Below are positions 267 to 48,442 of a stretch of 48,617 nt of DNA, piece after piece. The translations under genes and the position numbers were made by a program. How positions within the stretch are numbered: position 1 is the stretch's first letter; every line of letters starts with the position of its first letter. Below the pieces are notes generated by a model, which ran no database searches, was not told where the DNA came from, and was given only the letters and a program-made list of their open reading frames with translations. This DNA is from a virus. The stretch lies in UHGV virus genome UHGV-1497260; one strand, written 5' to 3'.

Positions 267-956
267 ATGCTTGAAAACAGAAAACAAATTCAGAAAGAAA
301 TTTACTTACCAATAGCAACATATTGTTTAAAAGATAAGCAATATTATATAAAAGAATATGGAGCACTATTAATAAAGAGTGCTGAAAATAGTGACATTTT
401 TAATACCCATAAAAATAGAATTTTGTATAAGAATAAACTTGATATTCAAGAAATAGCAAATGAACTGAATGTAAATAAAGCAACAATCCAAAGAAATATA
501 AAAAAACTAGAGAAGTTAGATTTTAAAATTCTAAAAATAGAAAATACCCTAAATGGAATTGTATATTGTTTGCCGTCAGAAAATAATATTGATTTAAACA
601 AATTTGCATTGATAAATTATGAAATGCTTAAAAAAATAGTCAATAAATTTAAATCAAATACAATAAAAGTATATTTTTTACTTAAAACAATCACTACAGA
701 AACTAATTTTAAACCTGCAACTAATAGTTTTATAGCAGAAAATATAGGACTAAGTTCTAAAAGTAAAAATAATTTAGATATCATAACTTCTTCTGTTAAA
801 ACTTTAGAAGAAAATAAATACATTGAAACAAAAAAAGTAAATGTATATGAATATGACAAAGAAAAACTTAGAGAAGTTCCAAAAATAAGAAAAGTTTATC
901 GGATTTGTAATTTTGATGAGTGGAAAAAGGAAATTGATAAAAATAAAGTTTATTAA
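267..956 (+). CDS. DNA-binding protein with two tandem winged-helix/HTH-like segments; possible replication or regulatory protein next to the origin
   Basis: HTH-like segment IQEIANELNVNKATIQRNIKKLEKL and a second similar segment in the C-terminal half; sits between the iterons and the BlaI-like gene. Confidence 0.4.
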   Translation: MLENRKQIQKEIYLPIATYCLKDKQYYIKEYGALLIKSAENSDIFNTHKNRILYKNKLDIQEIANELNVNKATIQRNIKKLEKLDFKILKIENTLNGIVYCLPSENNIDLNKFALINYEMLKKIVNKFKSNTIKVYFLLKTITTETNFKPATNSFIAENIGLSSKSKNNLDIITSSVKTLEENKYIETKKVNVYEYDKEKLREVPKIRKVYRICNFDEWKKEIDKNKVY

Positions 957-2957: not shown

Positions 2958-2988
2958 CAACAGTAAATACTTAAGGGGAGTGATAAGC

Positions 2989-3696
2989 TTGAAAATTTCA
3001 GATTTTAATAAAGATCATATAGGTAAAGCGATTCAACTACAAGAGACAAGATTTAATGTCATAACGGATTGCATCATCACAGAAGTAGAAGTAGGCGAAA
3101 TTGTTGTAATGTTTTACATGCAAGAAAATGATGACACAGGATACAAGGCTATAACATGGGAAGATTTAAAAAATTATATCATAAATGGCAAAGGGAAGAG
3201 GCATTATAGGATTTTTGTGGCTTGGGGGATTGTTATAAAAAGAGGTATAACCTCTTTTTATAACTCTTCATTTTTGATTTTTAGATATGCATTGTCAATT
3301 ATTTTTTCTATCGCTTCTCTATCTTCATCTTCCAATGCAAATATCTTTTTTATCATAGTTTTTATTTCTTCACTAGTTTCTAAATCTTCTGTAATGTCAA
3401 CGAACATTTCACCTTCTCCATGCAATAACCATTGTTCATTTACATTAAATTCTCTACAAATATCATTTATGGTTCTTTGTGGTATCTTTCTATGCCCTGT
3501 TTCATATGAAGAGATTTGCGAAAGAGACAAACCTAATTTTTTGCCAAAATCTTTTTGTTTTAATTTCTTTGAAAGCCTTATATCTTTAAGTCGTTGTCTT
3601 CTTTCATTATCTTCTAAGTTTTGTTTTTCCATAACGTCACCCCTTATGAGTATAATTATAACATTTAAAAATACGCTTTGCAATTACAAATTTTAA
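2989..3696 (+). CDS. small conserved phage protein P1 (paralogue of 3966-4172); N-terminal ~85 aa supported, 3-prime end uncertain because the frame stays open across the antisense of XRE2
   Basis: IGKAIQLQETRFNVITDCIITEVEVGEIVVMFYMQE aligns with IGTAVQLQDIRFDTKVDCIITKVEKNEILVMYYEKE of the 3966 ORF; TTG start with AAGGGGAG ribosome-binding site as in the paralogue; segment KNYIINGKGKRHYRIFVAWG resembles the C-terminus of the 4201 initiator. Confidence 0.4.
   Translation: MKISDFNKDHIGKAIQLQETRFNVITDCIITEVEVGEIVVMFYMQENDDTGYKAITWEDLKNYIINGKGKRHYRIFVAWGIVIKRGITSFYNSSFLIFRYALSIIFSIASLSSSSNANIFFIIVFISSLVSKSSVMSTNISPSPCNNHCSFTLNSLQISFMVLCGIFLCPVSYEEICERDKPNFLPKSFCFNFFESLISLSRCLLSLSSKFCFSITSPLMSIIITFKNTLCNYKF
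3258..3632 (-). CDS. XRE-family HTH repressor (CI-like), copy 2
   Basis: HTH segment LKQKDFGKKLGLSLSQISSYETGHRKIP; start MEKQ with AAGGGGTGA ribosome-binding site; paralogue of 2256-2624. Confidence 0.85.
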   Translation of the reverse strand: MEKQNLEDNERRQRLKDIRLSKKLKQKDFGKKLGLSLSQISSYETGHRKIPQRTINDICREFNVNEQWLLHGEGEMFVDITEDLETSEEIKTMIKKIFALEDEDREAIEKIIDNAYLKIKNEEL

Positions 3697-4200: not shown

Positions 4201-4920
4201 ATGGATCTTTTGAAAGATGCAAGAAAAAAAGAATGGTTTTGGCTGGAAAATGATTTGGTGGATAGAGAGGATCTAAGTGTTTACGAAAAAATGGCTTATA
4301 TGGTAATGGCAAGATATTCAGATGATGAAAGTTCTTGTTTCCCAAGTTTATCATTAATATCCAAGAAAATGGGATGCGGAATAACGACTGTCAAAAAAAC
4401 AATAAATAGTTTAGAAGAAAAAAATTTAATAATAAAAGTACATCGCAAGGTTAAAAACAAAAAGGAAAATGATACAAATGTTTATTACATTATGAGTTTG
4501 AAAGGTAAGTCGTCTGGCGACATAGGTCATGAGGCGACAGACGGTAGGTCGCCATACGACCAACAGGTAGGTCGCGAGGCGACTAGTAAAAAGACTTATA
4601 ATAAAAAGACTTATATAAAAAGTAATACCACTACACAAAAAGAATCTAAAACTTATTTAGACCTATCATTTTTAGATTTAGATATAGAAAAAGTAAAACT
4701 AACTAAAGATGAATATGACAAACTTATAAGCAAGTTTGGAAAGAAATACATACATGATAAAATTGTTAGTTTAGAAAACTATATCGTAAATGGTAAAGGG
4801 AGTAGATATAAGAGTCATTACAGAGCTTTGTTGACTTGGGGGAATGGAGATGCTAGTAAAGGTATAGTACCAGAAGTTACAAAGACTAAGAATCCTCTTA
4901 GTGGATTTAAAGAACTTTAA
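4201..4920 (+). CDS. phage replication initiator / replisome organizer (DnaD-like, N-terminal winged-helix)
   Basis: segment WFWLENDLVDREDLSVYEKMAYMVMARYSDDESSCFPSLSLISKKMGCGITTVKKTINSLEEKNLI is typical of firmicute phage initiator N-termini; C-terminal NYIVNGKG..ALLTWG motif; immediately upstream of the helicase. Confidence 0.65.
   Translation: MDLLKDARKKEWFWLENDLVDREDLSVYEKMAYMVMARYSDDESSCFPSLSLISKKMGCGITTVKKTINSLEEKNLIIKVHRKVKNKKENDTNVYYIMSLKGKSSGDIGHEATDGRSPYDQQVGREATSKKTYNKKTYIKSNTTTQKESKTYLDLSFLDLDIEKVKLTKDEYDKLISKFGKKYIHDKIVSLENYIVNGKGSRYKSHYRALLTWGNGDASKGIVPEVTKTKNPLSGFKEL
4505..4586. repeat. GC-rich island of direct and inverted repeats inside the initiator gene (GGTAGGTCGC x2, GAGGCGAC x2, GGCGAC/GTCGCC inverted); candidate phage origin
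   Basis: roughly 60% GC in a ~28% GC genome; repeats read directly; analogous to the lambda origin lying inside its O gene. Confidence 0.55.
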
Positions 4921-5133: not shown

Positions 5134-5159
5134 TTAAGTATAAATTAGGAGGATTGTTT

Positions 5160-5378
5160 ATGGCAGATAAAACTGTAGAACTTACTGAAAAGGATTTGCA
5201 CTGCATTGCAAGGCATTTGCAAAATGAAGTGTTAGAGATAGCATTTAGAGGAAACAGAGAAGCCCCTACATCTTGTGAAGTTTGCGATTACTTCGAAGAA
5301 TGCAAGGACTATTTCACCCATATAGACACTTTTATAAAATTAAGTGAAATGACAGGTGTAGATATTTTTACTAAATAA
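5160..5378 (+). CDS. small conserved protein A1 of the duplicated cassette (unknown function)
   Basis: about 80% identical over the first 50 aa to A2 at 5772-6032 (ELTEKDLHCIARHLQNEVLEIAFRGNREAPTSCEVCDY); AGGAGG ribosome-binding site. Confidence 0.55.
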   Translation: MADKTVELTEKDLHCIARHLQNEVLEIAFRGNREAPTSCEVCDYFEECKDYFTHIDTFIKLSEMTGVDIFTK

Positions 5379-5396
5379 ATTTAGTAAATTAAAATT

Positions 5397-5603
5397 TTAG
5401 TATTGTAATTGACGTGCTTTTTTAAAAAGAGGACAGTTGCTATTAGCAGTCATTATTTGAATTTTGCAAATGTAATTTTTATTACATTCGCACTCTAAAA
5501 GTTTTGATCCAGCGAATCCAGGAAAAGTTTTATATTCACCAGAAAATTCAACTTTATCGTCAATAAGAGAGCATTTTTCTCTTAAGGTTTTAATTTTGCA
5601 CAT
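5397..5603 (-). CDS. small Cys-rich protein B1 of the duplicated cassette (unknown function)
   Basis: paralogue of B2 (PGFAGSKLLECEC vs PGTFGSKLMSTRC, shared CP[LI]xKK); GGGTGGTG ribosome-binding site; convergent with A1. Confidence 0.5.
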   Translation of the reverse strand: MCKIKTLREKCSLIDDKVEFSGEYKTFPGFAGSKLLECECNKNYICKIQIMTANSNCPLFKKARQLQY

Positions 5604-5617
5604 ATTCATCACCACCC

Positions 5618-5662
5618 TATAATTAATTTGAACATACTGCCAATATGCTCAAATTAATTATA
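5618..5662. promoter_or_regulatory. 19-bp-arm inverted repeat TATAATTAATTTGAACATA-7-TATGCTCAAATTAATTATA between the B1 promoter and start codon
   Basis: 18 of 19 positions symmetric; a second copy at 6229-6271 with symmetric variation. Confidence 0.7.
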
Positions 5663-5771
5663 ACATGCAAATTATCATGGTGTAGAATTAAAGCATAGGT
5701 CAATTAAATTTAGTTATAAAATCAATGAAACAGATAAATAATTAAATGTTAAATAAATTAGGGGGTTGTTC

Positions 5772-6032
5772 ATGAAAGAGGAAAAGTTAGAACTTACTGA
5801 AAAAGAATTGCATTGTATTGCAAGACATTTGCAAAATGAAGTTATGGAGATGGTATTTAGAGGGAATAGAGAAGCCCCCACATCATGTGAAGTTTGCGAT
5901 TACCTGCAAGAATGTGAGGGAGATTTTACCTGTATGTATCATTCTTTTACTAAATTAAGCAAAATAACAGGTGTAAAAGTGACTGCATTTAAGTATTGTT
6001 TTCCAGATGAAAATCCCAAAGCTACTATCTAA
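5772..6032 (+). CDS. small conserved protein A2 (paralogue of A1)
   Basis: paralogy read directly; GGGGG ribosome-binding site. Confidence 0.55.
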   Translation: MKEEKLELTEKELHCIARHLQNEVMEMVFRGNREAPTSCEVCDYLQECEGDFTCMYHSFTKLSKITGVKVTAFKYCFPDENPKATI

Positions 6033-6213
6033 GAAGTTTTTTTAGAATAGGACATTCTTCATTAGAAGAAGAGTCGCAAATATGACTTCCATCACATCTA
6101 GTTGACATTAACTTAGATCCAAAAGTACCTGGAGGAGCTGAATATTCGCAAGTAAGAGAAATGGTTTCGTTTATTACAGGACATTCTTTGCTTATAACTC
6201 GATATTGGCTCAT
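6025..6213 (-). CDS. small Cys-rich protein B2 (paralogue of B1)
   Basis: AAGTGGTGAGAG ribosome-binding site; 3-prime end overlaps A2 by 8 bp (convergent). Confidence 0.5.
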   Translation of the reverse strand: MSQYRVISKECPVINETISLTCEYSAPPGTFGSKLMSTRCDGSHICDSSSNEECPILKKLLR

Positions 6214-6228
6214 ACTCTCACCACTTTT

Positions 6229-6271
6229 CTAATTAATTTAAACATATTGGAAGTATGTTTAAATTAATTAT
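6229..6271. promoter_or_regulatory. perfect 17-bp-arm inverted repeat TAATTAATTTAAACATA-7-TATGTTTAAATTAATTA upstream of B2
   Basis: perfect dyad; differs from the module 1 dyad by a G-to-A change present in both arms. Confidence 0.7.
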
Positions 6272-6350
6272 AGCATGTAAATTATCATGGTGTAGAATAG
6301 TTTCAAATCAAAAGAAGCAACTAAATAGTTAAAGACAGGAGGTATGCTAA

Positions 6351-6689: not shown

Positions 6690-8018
6690 ATGAATTACTC
6701 TTTAGAAGCAGAGCAAAACATTCTAGGAAGTTTTCTTATAAATGACTCTATAGGTTACAAAATAAGGGAATTAAAAGAAAATGATTTCTACTTTGAGTCA
6801 CATAAAATTATTTTATCTTGTATGAAGAGAATAATTGACTCAAATAAACCTTTAGATCTTTTGCTTTTAAAAAATGAACTAGAAAAAATAGATAGATTAG
6901 TAGACGTTGGAGGAGTTAGTTACATTACCAGTTTAACAACTATAGTCATAACTACTTCAAACATAGATCACTATATAAAAATCATAAAAGAGAAGTTACT
7001 TAAAAGACAAATTTCAGAGTTAGCAAATGAATTAATTAATAATTCAAATTCAGATAAAAGTATAGACGAATTGATTGTAGATATAAACGATTTAAAAGCA
7101 CTTGTGACGACGAGCAGTAGTGTAAATGATAATTACATTGATGCGTCAAAAATAAAGCGTGAAAAAGGCGTACACAAGTCCATAGACACAGGTTTTAATA
7201 AACTAAACAATATGCTAGATGGATTTAGATATGGAACTCTTACAATTTTGACTGGTAAACCTGCGTCTGGTAAATCAACTATAGTTAACCAGTTTATAGC
7301 ACAAGCAATTACGAATGGAGAAAAAGCATTTTTGTATTCTGGAGAATTACCCTCTTTCATGGCTATGGATTGGTTTAGAAAAACTGTAGCTAATGATTAT
7401 CACATAAAAGAATATAAAAGTGTCTATGGAGGAACATACACAGATATTCCAGATTATGCCTCTGAACTTATTTCAGACTGGATAAAAGATAAATTTTTTC
7501 TCTATGACGAAGATGCAATAAGTGATGAAGTAAATCTACTAAATACCATAGAGCATTTATATTTAAAAAAAGGGGTTAGGTTCTTTGTTCTTGACAATCT
7601 AATGACAATAAAAACTGGCAAGGCAGATAAATATGAGAGACAAGAGCAGATAGTAAGCAACTTAAAAAACCTTGCTAAAAAATATAACTTAGTAATAGTT
7701 TTAGTTGCACATCCTCGTAAAAATATGGGTGACATGAAGCCAACTATGTATGATGTGTCTGGAGCAAGTGAGATTGTTAATTATGCAGATTATATTTTAT
7801 CAACATACAGGGTTATTGACGAAGAAGAAGAAACAGACGACACTTATCTATTAATTTTAAAAAATAGAATAACAGGAAAACAGAATATAAGTTTTAAAAT
7901 GAATTTTTCAGAAAGAAGAAAAAGACTTTACACGACTAGTGAGGAGTTAAACAGAGATTACAAATATGATGTAAATAAACAATATGTTCAAGTAGAAATT
8001 CCAGAAGATGTATTTTAA
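6690..8018 (+). CDS. replicative DNA helicase, DnaB-like
   Basis: N-terminal DnaB-type segment EAEQNILGSFLIND; Walker A GKPASGKST; hexameric-helicase-like C-terminal region. Confidence 0.8.
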   Translation: MNYSLEAEQNILGSFLINDSIGYKIRELKENDFYFESHKIILSCMKRIIDSNKPLDLLLLKNELEKIDRLVDVGGVSYITSLTTIVITTSNIDHYIKIIKEKLLKRQISELANELINNSNSDKSIDELIVDINDLKALVTTSSSVNDNYIDASKIKREKGVHKSIDTGFNKLNNMLDGFRYGTLTILTGKPASGKSTIVNQFIAQAITNGEKAFLYSGELPSFMAMDWFRKTVANDYHIKEYKSVYGGTYTDIPDYASELISDWIKDKFFLYDEDAISDEVNLLNTIEHLYLKKGVRFFVLDNLMTIKTGKADKYERQEQIVSNLKNLAKKYNLVIVLVAHPRKNMGDMKPTMYDVSGASEIVNYADYILSTYRVIDEEEETDDTYLLILKNRITGKQNISFKMNFSERRKRLYTTSEELNRDYKYDVNKQYVQVEIPEDVF

Positions 8019-26648: not shown

Positions 26649-29600
26649 ATGAGTGATGGTACAAGAGTTTTACAAGCAATTATAAGAATGAGAGATGAAG
26701 CTAGTGCAACTTTAAGAAGAGTTGCGGCAAATACAAGATCTCTGCATGACTCAACTTCTAACGCCTCTAAGGCTTTAAATAATGTCCAAAACAATTTAAA
26801 AAATGTTGGTTCTACCGCTTTAAAAACAGGTAGTGCTATAGCTGCTGTGTCTGGTGGGATACTCGCTTTAAGTGCAAAATCTGCAATAGAATTCGAAAGT
26901 GCTTTTGCAGGAGTTAAAAAGACTGTAAATGCAAGTGATGCAGATATTAATACGTTTAAGAAAAATATCATGGATTTATCTAAAAATATGCCACAAACGG
27001 CAGTTGAGATTAGTGCTGTCGGAGAAGCAGCAGGACAATTAGGTATTAAAGTCGGCAAAAATGCATCTAATATTACAAATTTTACAAAAACAATGGTTAT
27101 GCTTGGAGATGCAACAAACATGTCGTCTGATGAAGCAGCTACAGCATTAGCTAGATTTGCAAACATTGTTCAAATGCCACAAAAAAACTTTGATAGACTT
27201 GGAGCAACGATAGTTCAACTTGGAAATAACCTAGCAACTACAGAAAGCGAAATTGTTGAAATGGCTCTTAGACTTGCTGGTTCTGGAAAACAAGTTGGGA
27301 TGTCTGAGGCGCAAATAATGTCTTTCGCTGGTGCATTAAGTTCAGTTGGTATAAAAGCAGAGGCAGGAGGTTCTGCTTTTTCTAAGGTTATGCAACAAAT
27401 GCAATTATCATGCGAAATGGGAGGAAGTAAATTAAATAACTTTGCAAAAGTTGCTGGCATGAGTGCATCAAAATTTAAAGAGTCGTTTCAAAAAGATGCT
27501 GCTGGAGCAATTATATCATTTGTCAAAGGACTTGGAGATGCAAAAAAACATGGAAATAGTGCTATAAAAATGTTAAATAAGATGGGAATAACTGAAATAG
27601 GCATGACTGATGCATTGCTTAGAGCAAGTGGAGCAGGTGATCTATTTAACAACGCTATTCAACTTGGAAATGACGCTTGGAAAGAGAATGTAGCACTAAC
27701 AAATGAAGCAAATCAAAGATATTCAACGACAGAATCGCAGCTTAAGATGATGAAAAATCAGATTACTCAAGTAGCAATAATTATAGGGAATAATTTATTA
27801 CCTTTTATAAGAAGTGCAGTCCAAGTTGTATCTAATATGGCTAATGCTTTCTCTAACTTGCCTCCAGCCTTCCAATCAACTGTAACAGGTATATTGTTAG
27901 CTGTTACAACATTTGGCTTGTTGTTGGCTACTGTAGGGATTGTAAGTCTTGTTATTTCTAAAGCAGCAGGCTTATTCGCTTTCTTTATACCTATAATATT
28001 AAGAACAAAAGTTGCATTTAGAGCCTTTGTAATTGGAATGAAACCATTAAGTGCAGTATTTTTAGCTGTAATGGGTCCTATGGGTTGGACTATAGCAGCT
28101 GTAATAGCATTATCAGTAGCCTTTACTGTTGCTTATGCTAAATCTGAAGTATTTAGAAATAAAGTTAATTCATTAGTAAAATCATTTACAGAATTCGCAA
28201 AGCCTATAGTAAATTTTTGTATGCCTGCACTTAAACAATTAGGAGAGAAATTTAAAGAGTTGTTATCAGCATTTGGTCCACTATTTGCATCTATCTTAAA
28301 CTTAGGAAGTGTAATAATGAAGGTACTAGGACCTGTTTTAATTGGTGTAATAGGTTTTCATATAGCAAAATTAGTTGTAGTTTTATCTACTCTAGCAACT
28401 GCATTCAAAGCTGTAGTTGATACTATAACTAATGTATTAAATGGCCTTGCATCTATTTTAAATGGAATATTTGATTTAATTATAGGCATTGTCACAGGCG
28501 ATAGTAAAAAGATGATGGATGGAGTTAAACAAATATTTGATGGTGGAACTAAAATTATAAAATCAATTTGGAAAGGTTTCATAGATTTTGTAACTGCTCC
28601 TATACAAGCTATAGCCGATATAGCTGACAGCTTATTTAAAGATAAAGCTAAATGGCTTACAGATAAGTGGAGAGATTTAAGAACATTCTTAGAAAATCCA
28701 ATTGAAGCAACTGCCAAAATATCTACTAAAACAAATGCAAATATCCCAGGAAGTAAAGCAGCAGATGCAGCTGGTAAATCTACACCAAATACAGGTGGAT
28801 TAAAACAAACAGTAGCAAATCTAAAAGGTTCATTTAGTGATTTTAAAACTTTTATTAAGCCTATGACAGACTCTATAAGTCAAGGAGTTGAATCTGGAAA
28901 AACTAAATTTACAGAACTGCAAAACAAAATATTAAATGATGTTAAACCTGCATTAAAGGTCTTAGAGGATTCTGGAGTAAATTTTAAAGATAAGTTTAAG
29001 GAGTCAATAACTTCAATAAAGGATAAATTTAATGAATTAAAGAACATATTAGCTGGAAATATTAAAACAAATATAGATAATTTAGTAAAAGCATTTGAAC
29101 CTTTAAAACCTCATTTAGATAATTTGAAAGATTGCTTTGATAAGGTTAAAAAAGCAATTACTGACTTTTTTACTCCAGCCAAACAGGTTGGAGATACAGT
29201 AAATAAAGTAAGTCAGCCAATGGATAGTGTTAAAAAGTCTACTGATGGAATTAAACTTTCTTTCCAAAGTTTAATTCAAGCACTTGCTCCTGTTAAAGCT
29301 TGGTTTCAAGGATTTATGCCTTTCCTATCACAAATAGGACAACAACTTTTACCATCTATAGGAATTGCAATAGCTGGTGTTGTTGGCGGAATAATTTTAG
29401 CATTTACATGGGTTTTAAATACATTAACCGCAATAATAACAACTGTTTCTGGAATCATAAATGGAATTATGTCTTTTATATCTGGAATTATTAATGTTAT
29501 TATGGGGCTTATAACAGGAAATGCTGATCAAACTATGGATGGACTTAAACAAATATTTGATAGTGGAGTAGGTGTAATAAAATCAATTTGGAATGGCCTT

Positions 29601-30041
29601 GTTGATCTAGTTAGTGGCGTACTAGAACCTGTAATAGATCTTGCTGATTCTCTTTTCAAAGATAAAGTTAAAGGGGTAAAAGAAGCTTGGAATAAACTTA
29701 AAGAATTTTTTCATAATCCAATCAAAGGAATGATCGAGATAGTAAAAAGTGGTCCTAGTTTACAAATAGGAAAAGGTGCGGATGCTGCTGGCAAAAGTCC
29801 AAGAAAAGCATTTGGTATAAATAGAGTTCCTAGAAATGATTATTTAATAAGAGCACACGAAGGCGAGAAACTTTTAACCAAACAAGAAGCTAATCAATAC
29901 AAAAGGAATAGTTCAAATGGAAGTTTATTTCTTGATAAATTGGCTGATACAATAATTGTAAGAGAAGAGGCTGACATAGATAAAATTGTAAGAAAAATAA
30001 ACAAAAAAATATCTCTTGCAAAAGTTGGAGGCGTTTTGTAA
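26649..30041 (+). CDS. tail tape measure protein with an internal ~170-aa duplication
   Basis: 1130 aa; predicted helical and transmembrane segments; repeated modules DSKKMMDGVKQIFDGGTKIIKSIWKG...ADSLFKDKAKW and NADQTMDGLKQIFDSGVGVIKSIWNG...ADSLFKDKVKG. Confidence 0.85.
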   Translation: MSDGTRVLQAIIRMRDEASATLRRVAANTRSLHDSTSNASKALNNVQNNLKNVGSTALKTGSAIAAVSGGILALSAKSAIEFESAFAGVKKTVNASDADINTFKKNIMDLSKNMPQTAVEISAVGEAAGQLGIKVGKNASNITNFTKTMVMLGDATNMSSDEAATALARFANIVQMPQKNFDRLGATIVQLGNNLATTESEIVEMALRLAGSGKQVGMSEAQIMSFAGALSSVGIKAEAGGSAFSKVMQQMQLSCEMGGSKLNNFAKVAGMSASKFKESFQKDAAGAIISFVKGLGDAKKHGNSAIKMLNKMGITEIGMTDALLRASGAGDLFNNAIQLGNDAWKENVALTNEANQRYSTTESQLKMMKNQITQVAIIIGNNLLPFIRSAVQVVSNMANAFSNLPPAFQSTVTGILLAVTTFGLLLATVGIVSLVISKAAGLFAFFIPIILRTKVAFRAFVIGMKPLSAVFLAVMGPMGWTIAAVIALSVAFTVAYAKSEVFRNKVNSLVKSFTEFAKPIVNFCMPALKQLGEKFKELLSAFGPLFASILNLGSVIMKVLGPVLIGVIGFHIAKLVVVLSTLATAFKAVVDTITNVLNGLASILNGIFDLIIGIVTGDSKKMMDGVKQIFDGGTKIIKSIWKGFIDFVTAPIQAIADIADSLFKDKAKWLTDKWRDLRTFLENPIEATAKISTKTNANIPGSKAADAAGKSTPNTGGLKQTVANLKGSFSDFKTFIKPMTDSISQGVESGKTKFTELQNKILNDVKPALKVLEDSGVNFKDKFKESITSIKDKFNELKNILAGNIKTNIDNLVKAFEPLKPHLDNLKDCFDKVKKAITDFFTPAKQVGDTVNKVSQPMDSVKKSTDGIKLSFQSLIQALAPVKAWFQGFMPFLSQIGQQLLPSIGIAIAGVVGGIILAFTWVLNTLTAIITTVSGIINGIMSFISGIINVIMGLITGNADQTMDGLKQIFDSGVGVIKSIWNGLVDLVSGVLEPVIDLADSLFKDKVKGVKEAWNKLKEFFHNPIKGMIEIVKSGPSLQIGKGADAAGKSPRKAFGINRVPRNDYLIRAHEGEKLLTKQEANQYKRNSSNGSLFLDKLADTIIVREEADIDKIVRKINKKISLAKVGGVL

Positions 30042-30087
30042 ATTATCGTGCTATAATTGTAGTATATAATTTACAGGGGGTTATGTT

Positions 30088-30564
30088 ATGAATAAAAAAA
30101 TACCAGCATTAGCAATATTAATTGTATTATCTTTAAGTTTAGTTGGATGCAGCACAAATGATTCAAAAAATGGAGATAGTAAACCTAAGCAAAATACAGA
30201 GGAAATTAAAAATCATAAAATAGGCGAAGTTGTTGATTTGGACGGAGCAAAGGTATCTGTTAAAAATGTTAGAAAACTAGAATCAGATAGTAATGTATAT
30301 GCAGTTGAGATTGAAATCACCAATACAGGAGATACAGATCTTGAAAGTGATTTCCTTCAAAACTACATACTAAAAACGGATGATAATACAGTTGGAAATG
30401 CAATAAATAATCAAGAATTAAATGGAGAATTACTATTTGACACAATACATCCAGGAGATACATTAAAAGGTGAGATAGCATTTGAACTTACAAAAGATAC
30501 AAAGCCAAAAACAATTGAAATTGCTTATGAAAATGTAGGAAAATATACAGTATTTGATTTATAA
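30088..30564 (+). CDS. lipoprotein (signal peptide + LVGC lipobox), DUF4352-like beta-sandwich; moron inside the tail operon
   Basis: MNKKIPALAILIVLSLSLVGCS; own extended -10 (TGCTATAAT at 30049-30057) and its own terminator. Confidence 0.7.
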   Translation: MNKKIPALAILIVLSLSLVGCSTNDSKNGDSKPKQNTEEIKNHKIGEVVDLDGAKVSVKNVRKLESDSNVYAVEIEITNTGDTDLESDFLQNYILKTDDNTVGNAINNQELNGELLFDTIHPGDTLKGEIAFELTKDTKPKTIEIAYENVGKYTVFDL

Positions 30565-47254: not shown

Positions 47255-48442
47255 TTATTTATAGTAATATCCTTCTTCATTTACTATACCTTGATCAAAT
47301 AAATTTCTCCTAACAGTTTCAAGTCTGACAGGATCTTTGCTATAATCAACTTCTCTTTCTTCTTTTTTAACATCTTCATCATCCCAATATTTATCTAATT
47401 CTTCTTTAAACTTTAAATCATCTTTTTGATGAATTATAACTTCACTTATTTTATTTGAAAGTGTTGATTTAAAAAAATCATAATTCTTTGTATTTATAAT
47501 ATCAGTATTATCTCTTTCAAATGCTATAGCAATAGACTTATTAAAAGCATTCAGATAAACATCTTTCTTAAAATCAAACTCTTTAAAATCTTCTTTAAAT
47601 AGTTTAATCGTCCCTGTTGTAAAAATATTTTCATTTGGTATATAAAAACTAAAAGACACTTCATTGTCCTGCTTCTTTTTAGGTATATAATCTTCAACCA
47701 ATATATCTTTATCAAAATATTTTCTAGGTTCATAATCTATCACAGAAAAAATTATTTCATCTATTTTTCTATTTTTTCTTTTTTCTTCTTTTATTGAAAC
47801 AACCATGTTGCCTTTTTTATTTATTTCATTCATTGCTCTTTTTAGAACATTTTGTTTAAAATATTTATACTCTGGATATACATTATCTTTTAATTTCAAA
47901 TAAAATCTTAATTCATCTAACTTATATTTTATCTCCACTTCCTTATTTTCTCTGCTCCATAGTCTAAATAAAGTGTATAACCTCTGAGTATATGCACCTC
48001 TAAAATTAAATAACACTGATAAATTAATAGCTGTATATCCATTTTTCTTTTTCTGCATTTTTACAAAATCAGTTATATGATTGTATAGAACTTCATGCAT
48101 CATAATTGTATAAATTTGGTCTGTATGATCCAATTCATATGTATTAATTAAACCACTTCCAAAAGTTTTTAACTTGCCAGTTGTCTCTTCTATATAGTCA
48201 AATTCCAAAACACTTTGTTGAAACATGTTCAAAATTTCTTTTATATTTTTATGCTCATAATCATTATTGTTTTTCATAAATACTTTTAGTTCTTCTTTTG
48301 ATATAGTTGTAACATAAGATGAATTTTGCTGTTTCTGAGCATTAAAAAGTATTTTGTAAAATAATTTATTTTCCACATTTGTAAAATCATATTTACTTTT
48401 TATTAAATTATTTGGTTGCATTAAAATTTCTTTTTTTTCCAA
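47255..48442 (-). CDS. plasmid replication initiator, Rep_3-like (iteron-binding)
   Basis: N-terminal segment NNLIKSKYDFTNVENKLFYKILFNAQ resembles the Rep_3 family signature; gene abuts the iteron array. Confidence 0.65.
   Translation of the reverse strand: MEKKEILMQPNNLIKSKYDFTNVENKLFYKILFNAQKQQNSSYVTTISKEELKVFMKNNNDYEHKNIKEILNMFQQSVLEFDYIEETTGKLKTFGSGLINTYELDHTDQIYTIMMHEVLYNHITDFVKMQKKKNGYTAINLSVLFNFRGAYTQRLYTLFRLWSRENKEVEIKYKLDELRFYLKLKDNVYPEYKYFKQNVLKRAMNEINKKGNMVVSIKEEKRKNRKIDEIIFSVIDYEPRKYFDKDILVEDYIPKKKQDNEVSFSFYIPNENIFTTGTIKLFKEDFKEFDFKKDVYLNAFNKSIAIAFERDNTDIINTKNYDFFKSTLSNKISEVIIHQKDDLKFKEELDKYWDDEDVKKEEREVDYSKDPVRLETVRRNLFDQGIVNEEGYYYK

Follow-up and report, generated by a model that had tools for sequence, protein, structure and literature searches.

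A convergent two-gene cassette present as two stacked alleles in a Clostridioides difficile phage-plasmid

Results and Discussion

UHGV virus genome UHGV-1497260, a 48,617-nucleotide (nt) stretch called the window here, has two related units of ~550 bp at positions 5140-6298. Each unit contains a plus-strand gene A, a convergent minus-strand gene B and an AT-rich palindrome (41-45 bp) adjoining the start of B. The source element is an extrachromosomal prophage (phage-plasmid) of Clostridioides difficile. The preferred reading, which is held tentatively, is that the units are an accessory ("moron"-type) two-gene cassette of clostridial phages, with two old alleles stacked in the initiator-helicase slot of the phage-plasmid, B as the effector and A as its partner. 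The gene pairing is real and previously undescribed, but the general category, a phage accessory cassette, is already known and no unusual mechanism is demonstrated here.

The two genes and their proteins

The two units have the following features.

5160-5378, plus strand: A1, an acidic four-cysteine (Cys4) protein of phrog_1664, 72 aa from the ATG or 74 aa from a TTG at 5154
5397-5603, minus strand: B1, a Cys-rich protein of phrog_2560, 68 aa, with an 18-nt gap to the convergent A1
5618-5662, no strand: palindrome 1, arms 5618-5639 and 5641-5662, 22 nt with 2 mismatches (91% complementary)
5657-5686, minus strand: B1 promoter, TCTACA, 18 nt, TG-extended TATAAT, predicted start near the G at 5650
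5689-5752, no strand: 64-nt spacer between the units, without a counterpart in single-module relatives
5772-6032, plus strand: A2, a paralogue or allele of A1, 86 aa or 88 aa from 5766, with a variable C-terminal tail
6025-6213, minus strand: B2, a B allele, 62 aa, with an 8-bp overlap with the tail of A2
6230-6270, no strand: palindrome 2, arms 6230-6246 and 6254-6270, 17 nt and perfect, with a 7-nt centre flipped relative to palindrome 1
6267-6296, minus strand: B2 promoter, TCTACA, 18 nt, TG-extended TATAAT, predicted start near the A at 6260

The gene sizes, the convergent layout, the 8-bp overlap of A2 and B2 and the Cys-rich character of B had been described in an original prediction for this region and are all present in the sequence. 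B1 could also start further upstream, at 5609 (70 aa) or 5615 (72 aa). The ATG at 5603 is aligned to the start of B2 and lies 5-6 nt past a ribosome-binding site, GGGTGGTGA (5609-5617). The units contain two direct repeats, one of 80% identity (5151-5323 and 5763-5935) and one of 87% (5620-5688 and 6230-6298).

A1 and A2 are 65% identical in amino acids and B1 and B2 are 32% identical. The phrog_1664 profile matches A1 (E 1.5e-35) and A2 (E 5.9e-39) over their full length, and the distant A proteins of loci L025 and L027 match it at ~1e-12. Full-length matches to phrog_2560 are found for B1 (E 2.9e-44), B2 (E 1.2e-34), the distant homologue P0021 (1.4e-8) and the B protein of L027 (2e-3). Both are families without an assigned function. 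In A, the cysteines C15, C39, C42 and C48 are invariant (C-x23-C-x2-C-x5-C) and the N-terminal 44 residues are nearly so. B also has four invariant cysteines, which are C11, C40, C46 and C57 in B1 and follow the pattern C-x28-C-x5-C-x10-CP. The ratio of nonsynonymous to synonymous substitution (dN/dS) is 0.04-0.19 in the first 44 codons of A and 0.28-0.91 in B, which is fast-evolving. The PHROG matches, the dN/dS values below 1 and the conserved cysteines indicate that the pairs of open reading frames (ORFs) are real genes. A is acidic, with an isoelectric point (pI) of 4.6-5.6 in most alleles. The charge of B is not conserved (pI 4.9-9.0; B1 9.0), and the protein is without a hydrophobic helix (grand average of hydropathy -0.2 to -0.75). 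A tblastn search with A finds nothing opposite B, so the idea of B as an antisense shadow of a degenerate A gene (pseudogene) was dropped.

Pairing of A and B across phages

The arrangement in which B is convergent with A and lies directly 3' of it is found in four unrelated phage contexts.

Replication module of the phage-plasmids: five B allele groups
Between the terminase large subunit and portal genes: L025 and L026
Between a tape-measure gene and a LysM tail gene: L027
Between xkdP and xkdQ in phiCD119-like phages: L080-L091, as A-A, A-A-←B or A-←B

This recurrence indicates that A and B form a real two-gene convergent module, as had been predicted. The homology of the distant B proteins gives E values of 7e-6 and 2.5e-5 in hhalign and of 1e-11 to 3.5e-5 in hmmsearch. 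A always has the orientation of the surrounding phage operon and is without its own promoter. The 3' ends of A and B range from an overlap of 89 nt to a gap of 38 nt. There is no intrinsic terminator between A and B or after B in the window; a GC-rich bidirectional hairpin is present in L027 only.

The B family is very rare, with 5 representatives among 1.84 billion proteins in an exhaustive HMMER scan. Annotated A and B proteins are restricted to C. difficile. DNA and protein searches against sequenced phages return no match for the cassette or for B and weak matches for A in phiCD119-type phages only, and a literature search with the locus tags, accessions and PHROG identifiers of A and B returned nothing. 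In phiCD119 itself (NC_007917, 1396-1967), the hypothetical ORF21 and ORF22 are tandem A paralogues of phrog_1664 between xkdP and xkdQ (locus L065). In some of its near relatives a B gene replaces the second A copy or comes after it.

The range of contexts also bears on whether the pair is a plasmid-addiction or toxin-antitoxin-like system that stabilises the phage-plasmid, with B as the toxin and A as a protein antidote, or the reverse. The extrachromosomal state of the element would suit such a role, as would a conserved module of two small proteins whose alleles vary and stack. Orphan A genes occur and orphan B genes almost never do, which is also consistent with it. However, the pair is found in phage tail and packaging modules, where plasmid addiction is irrelevant, and the genes are convergent and not co-transcribed. 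There is also no match to a toxin-antitoxin or defence profile; against the PADLOC defence profiles, neither A nor B gives a match below E 0.01. It is unlikely that the pair serves plasmid addiction. The more general suggestion of the original prediction, an immunity/exclusion or toxin-antidote system, may still apply.

Divergence and recombination of the units

The synonymous divergence between units 1 and 2 is 0.58 in the N-terminus of A and 0.87 in B. Values this high identify the units as old alleles placed side by side and not a recent duplicate. Of the "tandem duplicated" cassette that had been proposed, the two related modules side by side are borne out, and a recent duplication is not. 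The tandem layout is best read as two alleles stacked by unequal recombination.

Conservation along the module is uneven. When module instances are compared, the first 132 nt of A are 80-92% identical and the segment from ribosome-binding site through palindrome to promoter is 84-99% identical. The 3' end of A together with B is 48-70% identical in most module pairs, with B reaching 81% between module 2 of the window and L020. Several alleles are mosaic. The B alleles P0017 and P0018 join halves of the B2 type and the P0015 type, and the A gene of L018 (4001-4219) is A2-like in its first 132 nt (92%) and A1-like in the remainder (97%). These mosaics show frequent recombination inside the cassette, at conserved anchors.

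The promoter-palindrome segments of units 1 and 2 differ at 9 of 69 nt (13%), where the synonymous rate of the neighbouring sequence predicts 28-36 differences (P < 1e-6). The proportion of synonymous differences in the neighbouring coding sequence is 0.40-0.52. This comparison of sequences supports purifying selection as the probable cause of the conservation of the segment.

Palindrome and promoter of B

The original prediction placed an inverted repeat on the promoter and leader of B. This is confirmed, in that the palindromes overlap the predicted B promoters with arms of 22 and 17 nt. The full arms are TAATTAATTTGAACATA and the reverse complement of TAATTAATTTGAGCATA in unit 1, and TAATTAATTTAAACATA, which is perfect, in unit 2. 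The palindromes are well beyond chance (0/1000 shuffles for module 2). The B promoter is the top promoter match of the region, with 10/12 positions, and is kept in both units. With the transcription starts of B placed by promoter geometry alone, the palindrome reaches from the -10 hexamer to the ribosome-binding site (~+33). On the plus strand, the left outer arm of palindrome 1 has the sequence TATAAT, which TTTGCA precedes by 17 nt (5595-5623, 10/12 match), and the palindrome of unit 1 therefore holds two face-to-face -10 boxes. The plus-strand copy in unit 2 is TCTAAT, so this feature is not conserved.

The presence of the palindrome tracks the presence or absence of B among close relatives. 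This bears on the idea that the palindrome is a replication element, either an origin or a cruciform site between the initiator and the helicase, with B incidental. An AT-rich palindrome of 41-45 bp inside a replication module could suit such a function. However, it is missing from B-less relatives with the same initiator and helicase (L021, L022, L024 and L063), and it always lies exactly at the B promoter and was duplicated together with B. A replication element is extremely improbable, and an origin of replication was rejected because B-less relatives do not have the palindrome.

At least two minus-strand cargo genes that are unrelated to B, one in L022 (66 aa) and one in L063 (229 aa), occupy the same slot and share the B promoter, ATTCTACA-N13-CATGYTATAAT. 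Their promoter copies are likewise followed by inverted repeats with a start inside the -10 (10/1000 shuffles in L022 and 76/1000 shuffles in L063), as is the B promoter of the tail modules. These repeats may lean thinly towards control at the DNA level. In the tail-module B promoter, AAAATGATAAAATATATCATGAAAGGAGG, which lies ~60 nt ahead of the start of B in L080 and L082, the -10 is overlapped by ATGATA-N5-TATCAT. This motif may resemble a Fur-type box, which is a lead only. In a by-eye comparison, none of the LexA (GAAC-N4-GTTC), CodY, Rex, PerR and Fur boxes fits the dyad of the window.

Symmetric change in the palindrome arms

The difference between the arms is as originally quoted, with TTTGAACATA and TTTGAGCATA in module 1 and TTTAAACATA on both arms in module 2. 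It had been taken as a signature of selection on dyad symmetry, through diverged operator specificity for a dimeric binder or through a conserved RNA hairpin. On the first of these explanations B, or A, is a dimeric DNA-binding autoregulator of its own palindrome, and the modules have evolved different specificities. A palindrome that overlaps the B promoter, a G:C to A:T change in both arms between modules 1 and 2, and the basic pI of B1 are what such a regulator might leave. However, the type of dyad is independent of the type of B or A, which does not support a module-encoded binder. The dyad type G,G|C,T precedes B1, P0015 and P0020, three proteins with pairwise identities of only 35-44%, A,A|T,T precedes B2, the hybrid type G,G|T,T precedes P0019, and the half-sites of L028 are mixed.

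The proposed co-variation of operator arms across homologous modules was also not borne out. Among 8 distinct dyad haplotypes, one of which came from metagenome and viral scans, there is one double-sided change, and 133/500 shuffles equal it. A promoter-anchor scan of species-representative genomes gave no match. The outer arms carry uncompensated changes in L016, L018 and L062. Moreover, the dyad of unit 2 has 4 differences from the reverse complement of the dyad of unit 1 and 7 in the same orientation; the 7-nt centre is therefore inverted between the units. It reads TTGGCAG on the minus strand of unit 1 and TTGGAAG on the plus strand of unit 2 (5631-5649 and 6241-6259). The centre appears flipped in the way expected from template switching in palindromes. 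Since template switching can both flip a centre and copy a change between arms, the symmetric change needs no selection for symmetry.

The proteins themselves do not favour this explanation either. Neither A, which is acidic, nor B, whose charge varies, looks like a conserved DNA binder, and neither has a match to a helix-turn-helix, ribbon-helix-helix or zinc-ribbon family. Autoregulation by A or B is very unlikely. A symmetric change in palindrome arms, taken by itself, is not evidence of operator co-evolution.

The pairing within the palindrome differs between strands. On the B-sense strand the inner 7 bp are 100% paired, as G-C, A-U or G·U, against 85.7% on the plus strand. The folding energies of type-1 dyads are -15 to -19 kcal/mol for the B-sense strand and -7 to -13 kcal/mol for the other. 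An element that acts in RNA only, with no DNA-binding factor, could account for this. It might be a 5'-terminal stem-loop that shields the B mRNA from 5' exonuclease, or else read-through transcripts from either strand might form a long hairpin as an RNase III-type processing site. 5'-terminal stem-loops protect Gram-positive mRNAs. Variation in the inner 7 bp keeps a pair on the B-sense strand where the other strand has A·C mismatches. If transcription starts 7 nt past the -10, the first base of the RNA is also the first base of the stem (9-bp stem, -8 kcal/mol), and the changes at arm positions 9 and 10 lie just upstream of the predicted start. However, the outer 10-12 bp, which pair the -10 and discriminator with the spacer before the ribosome-binding site, are outside of the predicted RNA and are nevertheless conserved, with a complementarity far beyond chance. 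The covariation is not significant, for module 2 it is the opposite strand that gives the slightly stronger fold (-15.5 against -13.5 kcal/mol), and the tail-module B promoters have leaders too short for the hairpin. An Rfam search gave sub-threshold chance matches only (E 0.15-0.63). An RNA-only element is a somewhat unlikely explanation.

Proposed role of the cassette

In the preferred reading, B is an accessory effector with its own expression signals. B would be transcribed autonomously from its own sigma-A-type promoter with a TG-extended -10, starting near 5650 and 6260, under the control of the palindrome in cis. This control is most likely exerted on the DNA itself, where the palindrome would either bind a conserved trans-acting repressor as its operator or make the promoter prone to cruciform formation. 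The inner 7-9 bp would also form a stem-loop at the extreme 5' end of the B mRNA, so that DNA and RNA roles may combine. Transcription of B would proceed antisense into A. Because of this antisense course, B would be made alone, probably in the plasmid-prophage state, and A would be made once the phage operon is active. Most likely, B would be an effector expressed from the prophage that acts in exclusion, defence or host modification, with A as a lytic-cycle partner or antidote. The stacked alleles would then double the specificity.

Several observations weigh against this reading. As the original prediction had stated, neither protein family is recognizable; phrog_1664 and phrog_2560 are both uncharacterised, and there is no Pfam, NCBIfam, PADLOC, PDB-sequence or Foldseek (PDB and BFVD) match for A or B. 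The AlphaFold2 (AF2) models are weak, with three helices for A (mean confidence score, pLDDT, 61) and three strands with a C-terminal helix for B (pLDDT 51). Since there is no homology to a characterised protein and the models are poor, the effector and antidote roles are conjecture. A is frequently found without B (phiCD119, L021, L022, L024, L063 and L092-L102), and therefore must have a function that is independent of B. The sole B without A is the distant homologue P0021, on a 1.9-kb contig (L033). Only the C. difficile phage-plasmid lineage has the large palindrome, which is not obvious in front of the distant B genes. In loci with one module, common ancestry of the backbone and not selection may partly explain why it is conserved together with the promoter. 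No repressor acting on the palindrome was identified. The dyad half-site does not recur beyond chance elsewhere in the window, immunity region included, so the CI-like repressor of the phage is not implicated.

A broader interpretation is that A and B belong to an unrecognised class of phage two-protein specificity module, in which an autonomous, hypervariable Cys4 protein B is neutralised or redirected by a conserved Cys4 protein A from the lytic operon. Such a module would be portable and stackable and might serve inter-phage exclusion or counter-defence in clostridia. This is rather unlikely on present evidence. If true, the class would be portable across packaging, tail and replication operons, and stacking would combine specificities.

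The phage-plasmids and prophages of C. difficile influence toxin expression, the transfer of genes and the prospects for phage therapy, and most of their small accessory genes are without a known function. With A under constraint, B evolving fast, the promoter-palindrome strongly conserved and alleles stacked, the cassette is a well-defined candidate for exclusion, defence or counter-defence.

Genome context

Circular plasmids of 45-47 kb carry the cassette at 98-99% identity, among them the plasmid (NZ_CP011969) of the type strain ATCC 9689 / DSM 1296. The structural genes of the window resemble those of phages HGP05 and phiSemix9P1. In C. difficile, it is common for extrachromosomal prophages to be active phages (PMC10993401). 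The cassette is flanked by the initiator and a 61-aa ORF on one side and by a 105-aa ORF and the DnaB helicase on the other. The replication genes and the cargo genes found in the same interval of relatives are listed below.

4201-4920, plus strand: DnaD-like / HTH_36 replication initiator, upstream of the cassette
6690-8018, plus strand: DnaB-type replicative helicase, downstream of the cassette
L022, 4652-4922, minus strand: reverse-oriented cargo gene
L063, 1735-2494, minus strand: reverse-oriented cargo gene
L021, 4955-5692, minus strand: reverse-oriented cargo gene
L032, 1481-2173: reverse-oriented cargo gene

The initiator-helicase interval of the phage-plasmids is a hotspot for such reverse-oriented cargo genes, which encode proteins of 66, 229, 245 and 230 aa. 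The 229-aa protein of L063, a soil Clostridioides plasmid, has a weak DUF4145 match. No source could be identified for the 64-nt spacer between the units. The window also contains an ScpB-like segregation protein (phrog_3396; 267-956, plus strand) and a second replication-initiator-like gene (phrog_2172 / phrog_4402; 47255-48442, minus strand), both of which fit the plasmid lifestyle of the prophage.

A second promoter with a TGn-extended -10, CGTGCTATAAT, lies at 30030-30075 on the plus strand between 10-bp inverted arms (TGTAAATTAT and ATAATTTACA). The site is located between the tape-measure gene (26649-30041) and a 158-aa ORF (30088-30564), and is the accessory slot in which A and B sit in phiCD119-like phages. 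At 3600-3680 on the minus strand, inside a plus-strand ORF (2980-3696), a site that resembles a promoter, AAATGTTATAAT, precedes a ribosome-binding site and ATGGAAAAACAAAAC. The PHROG match of this 238-aa ORF is limited to its first 65 residues. The true gene in this region may be the minus-strand ORF 3258-3683 and not the plus-strand ORF.

Comparison with known systems

Convergent type I toxin-antitoxin loci are known in Firmicute prophages, such as txpA/ratA and bsrG/SR4 of B. subtilis and the type I systems of C. difficile prophages. Like these loci, the cassette has small prophage genes, convergent transcription and a 3' overlap, and by analogy an antisense interplay is likely. However, both partners here are conserved soluble proteins, B is without the hydrophobic helix, and the 3' overlap is not conserved.

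The small Cys4 phage regulators include Ogr of P2, Delta of P4 and Com of Mu. They share with A and B a size of 60-90 aa and four conserved cysteines. Unlike them, B does not have CxxC...CxxC knuckles, and the cysteines of A are spaced as C-x23-C-x2-C-x5-C. There is no sequence or fold match for A or B, and the charge is not conserved.

The gene for AcrIB2 of phage phiCD38-2 follows the lysis genes in the same direction; the protein has many negatively charged and aromatic residues, and its description does not mention a richness in Cys (PMC10732046). AcrIB2, too, is a small accessory protein found in phages and episomal prophages of C. difficile, and A is similarly acidic. A relationship of AcrIB2 to A or B was rejected, as no similarity is detected.

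The closest concept in the preferred reading is the phage moron. Morons are autonomous accessory transcription units between phage genes, a concept from the lambdoid phages, and the classic ones consist of a single gene and a terminator. The cassette has no terminator of its own, and unlike a classic moron its B gene is consistently paired with a convergent A, with no terminator between them and with the promoter inside a large palindrome. Like a moron, B has its own predicted promoter, runs against the direction of the operon and is present or absent between backbones that are 95-98% identical. At the initiator-helicase slot, close relatives have 0, 1 or 2 modules next to DnaB genes that are 94-98% identical. 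B also shares its slot and its type of promoter with unrelated cargo genes.

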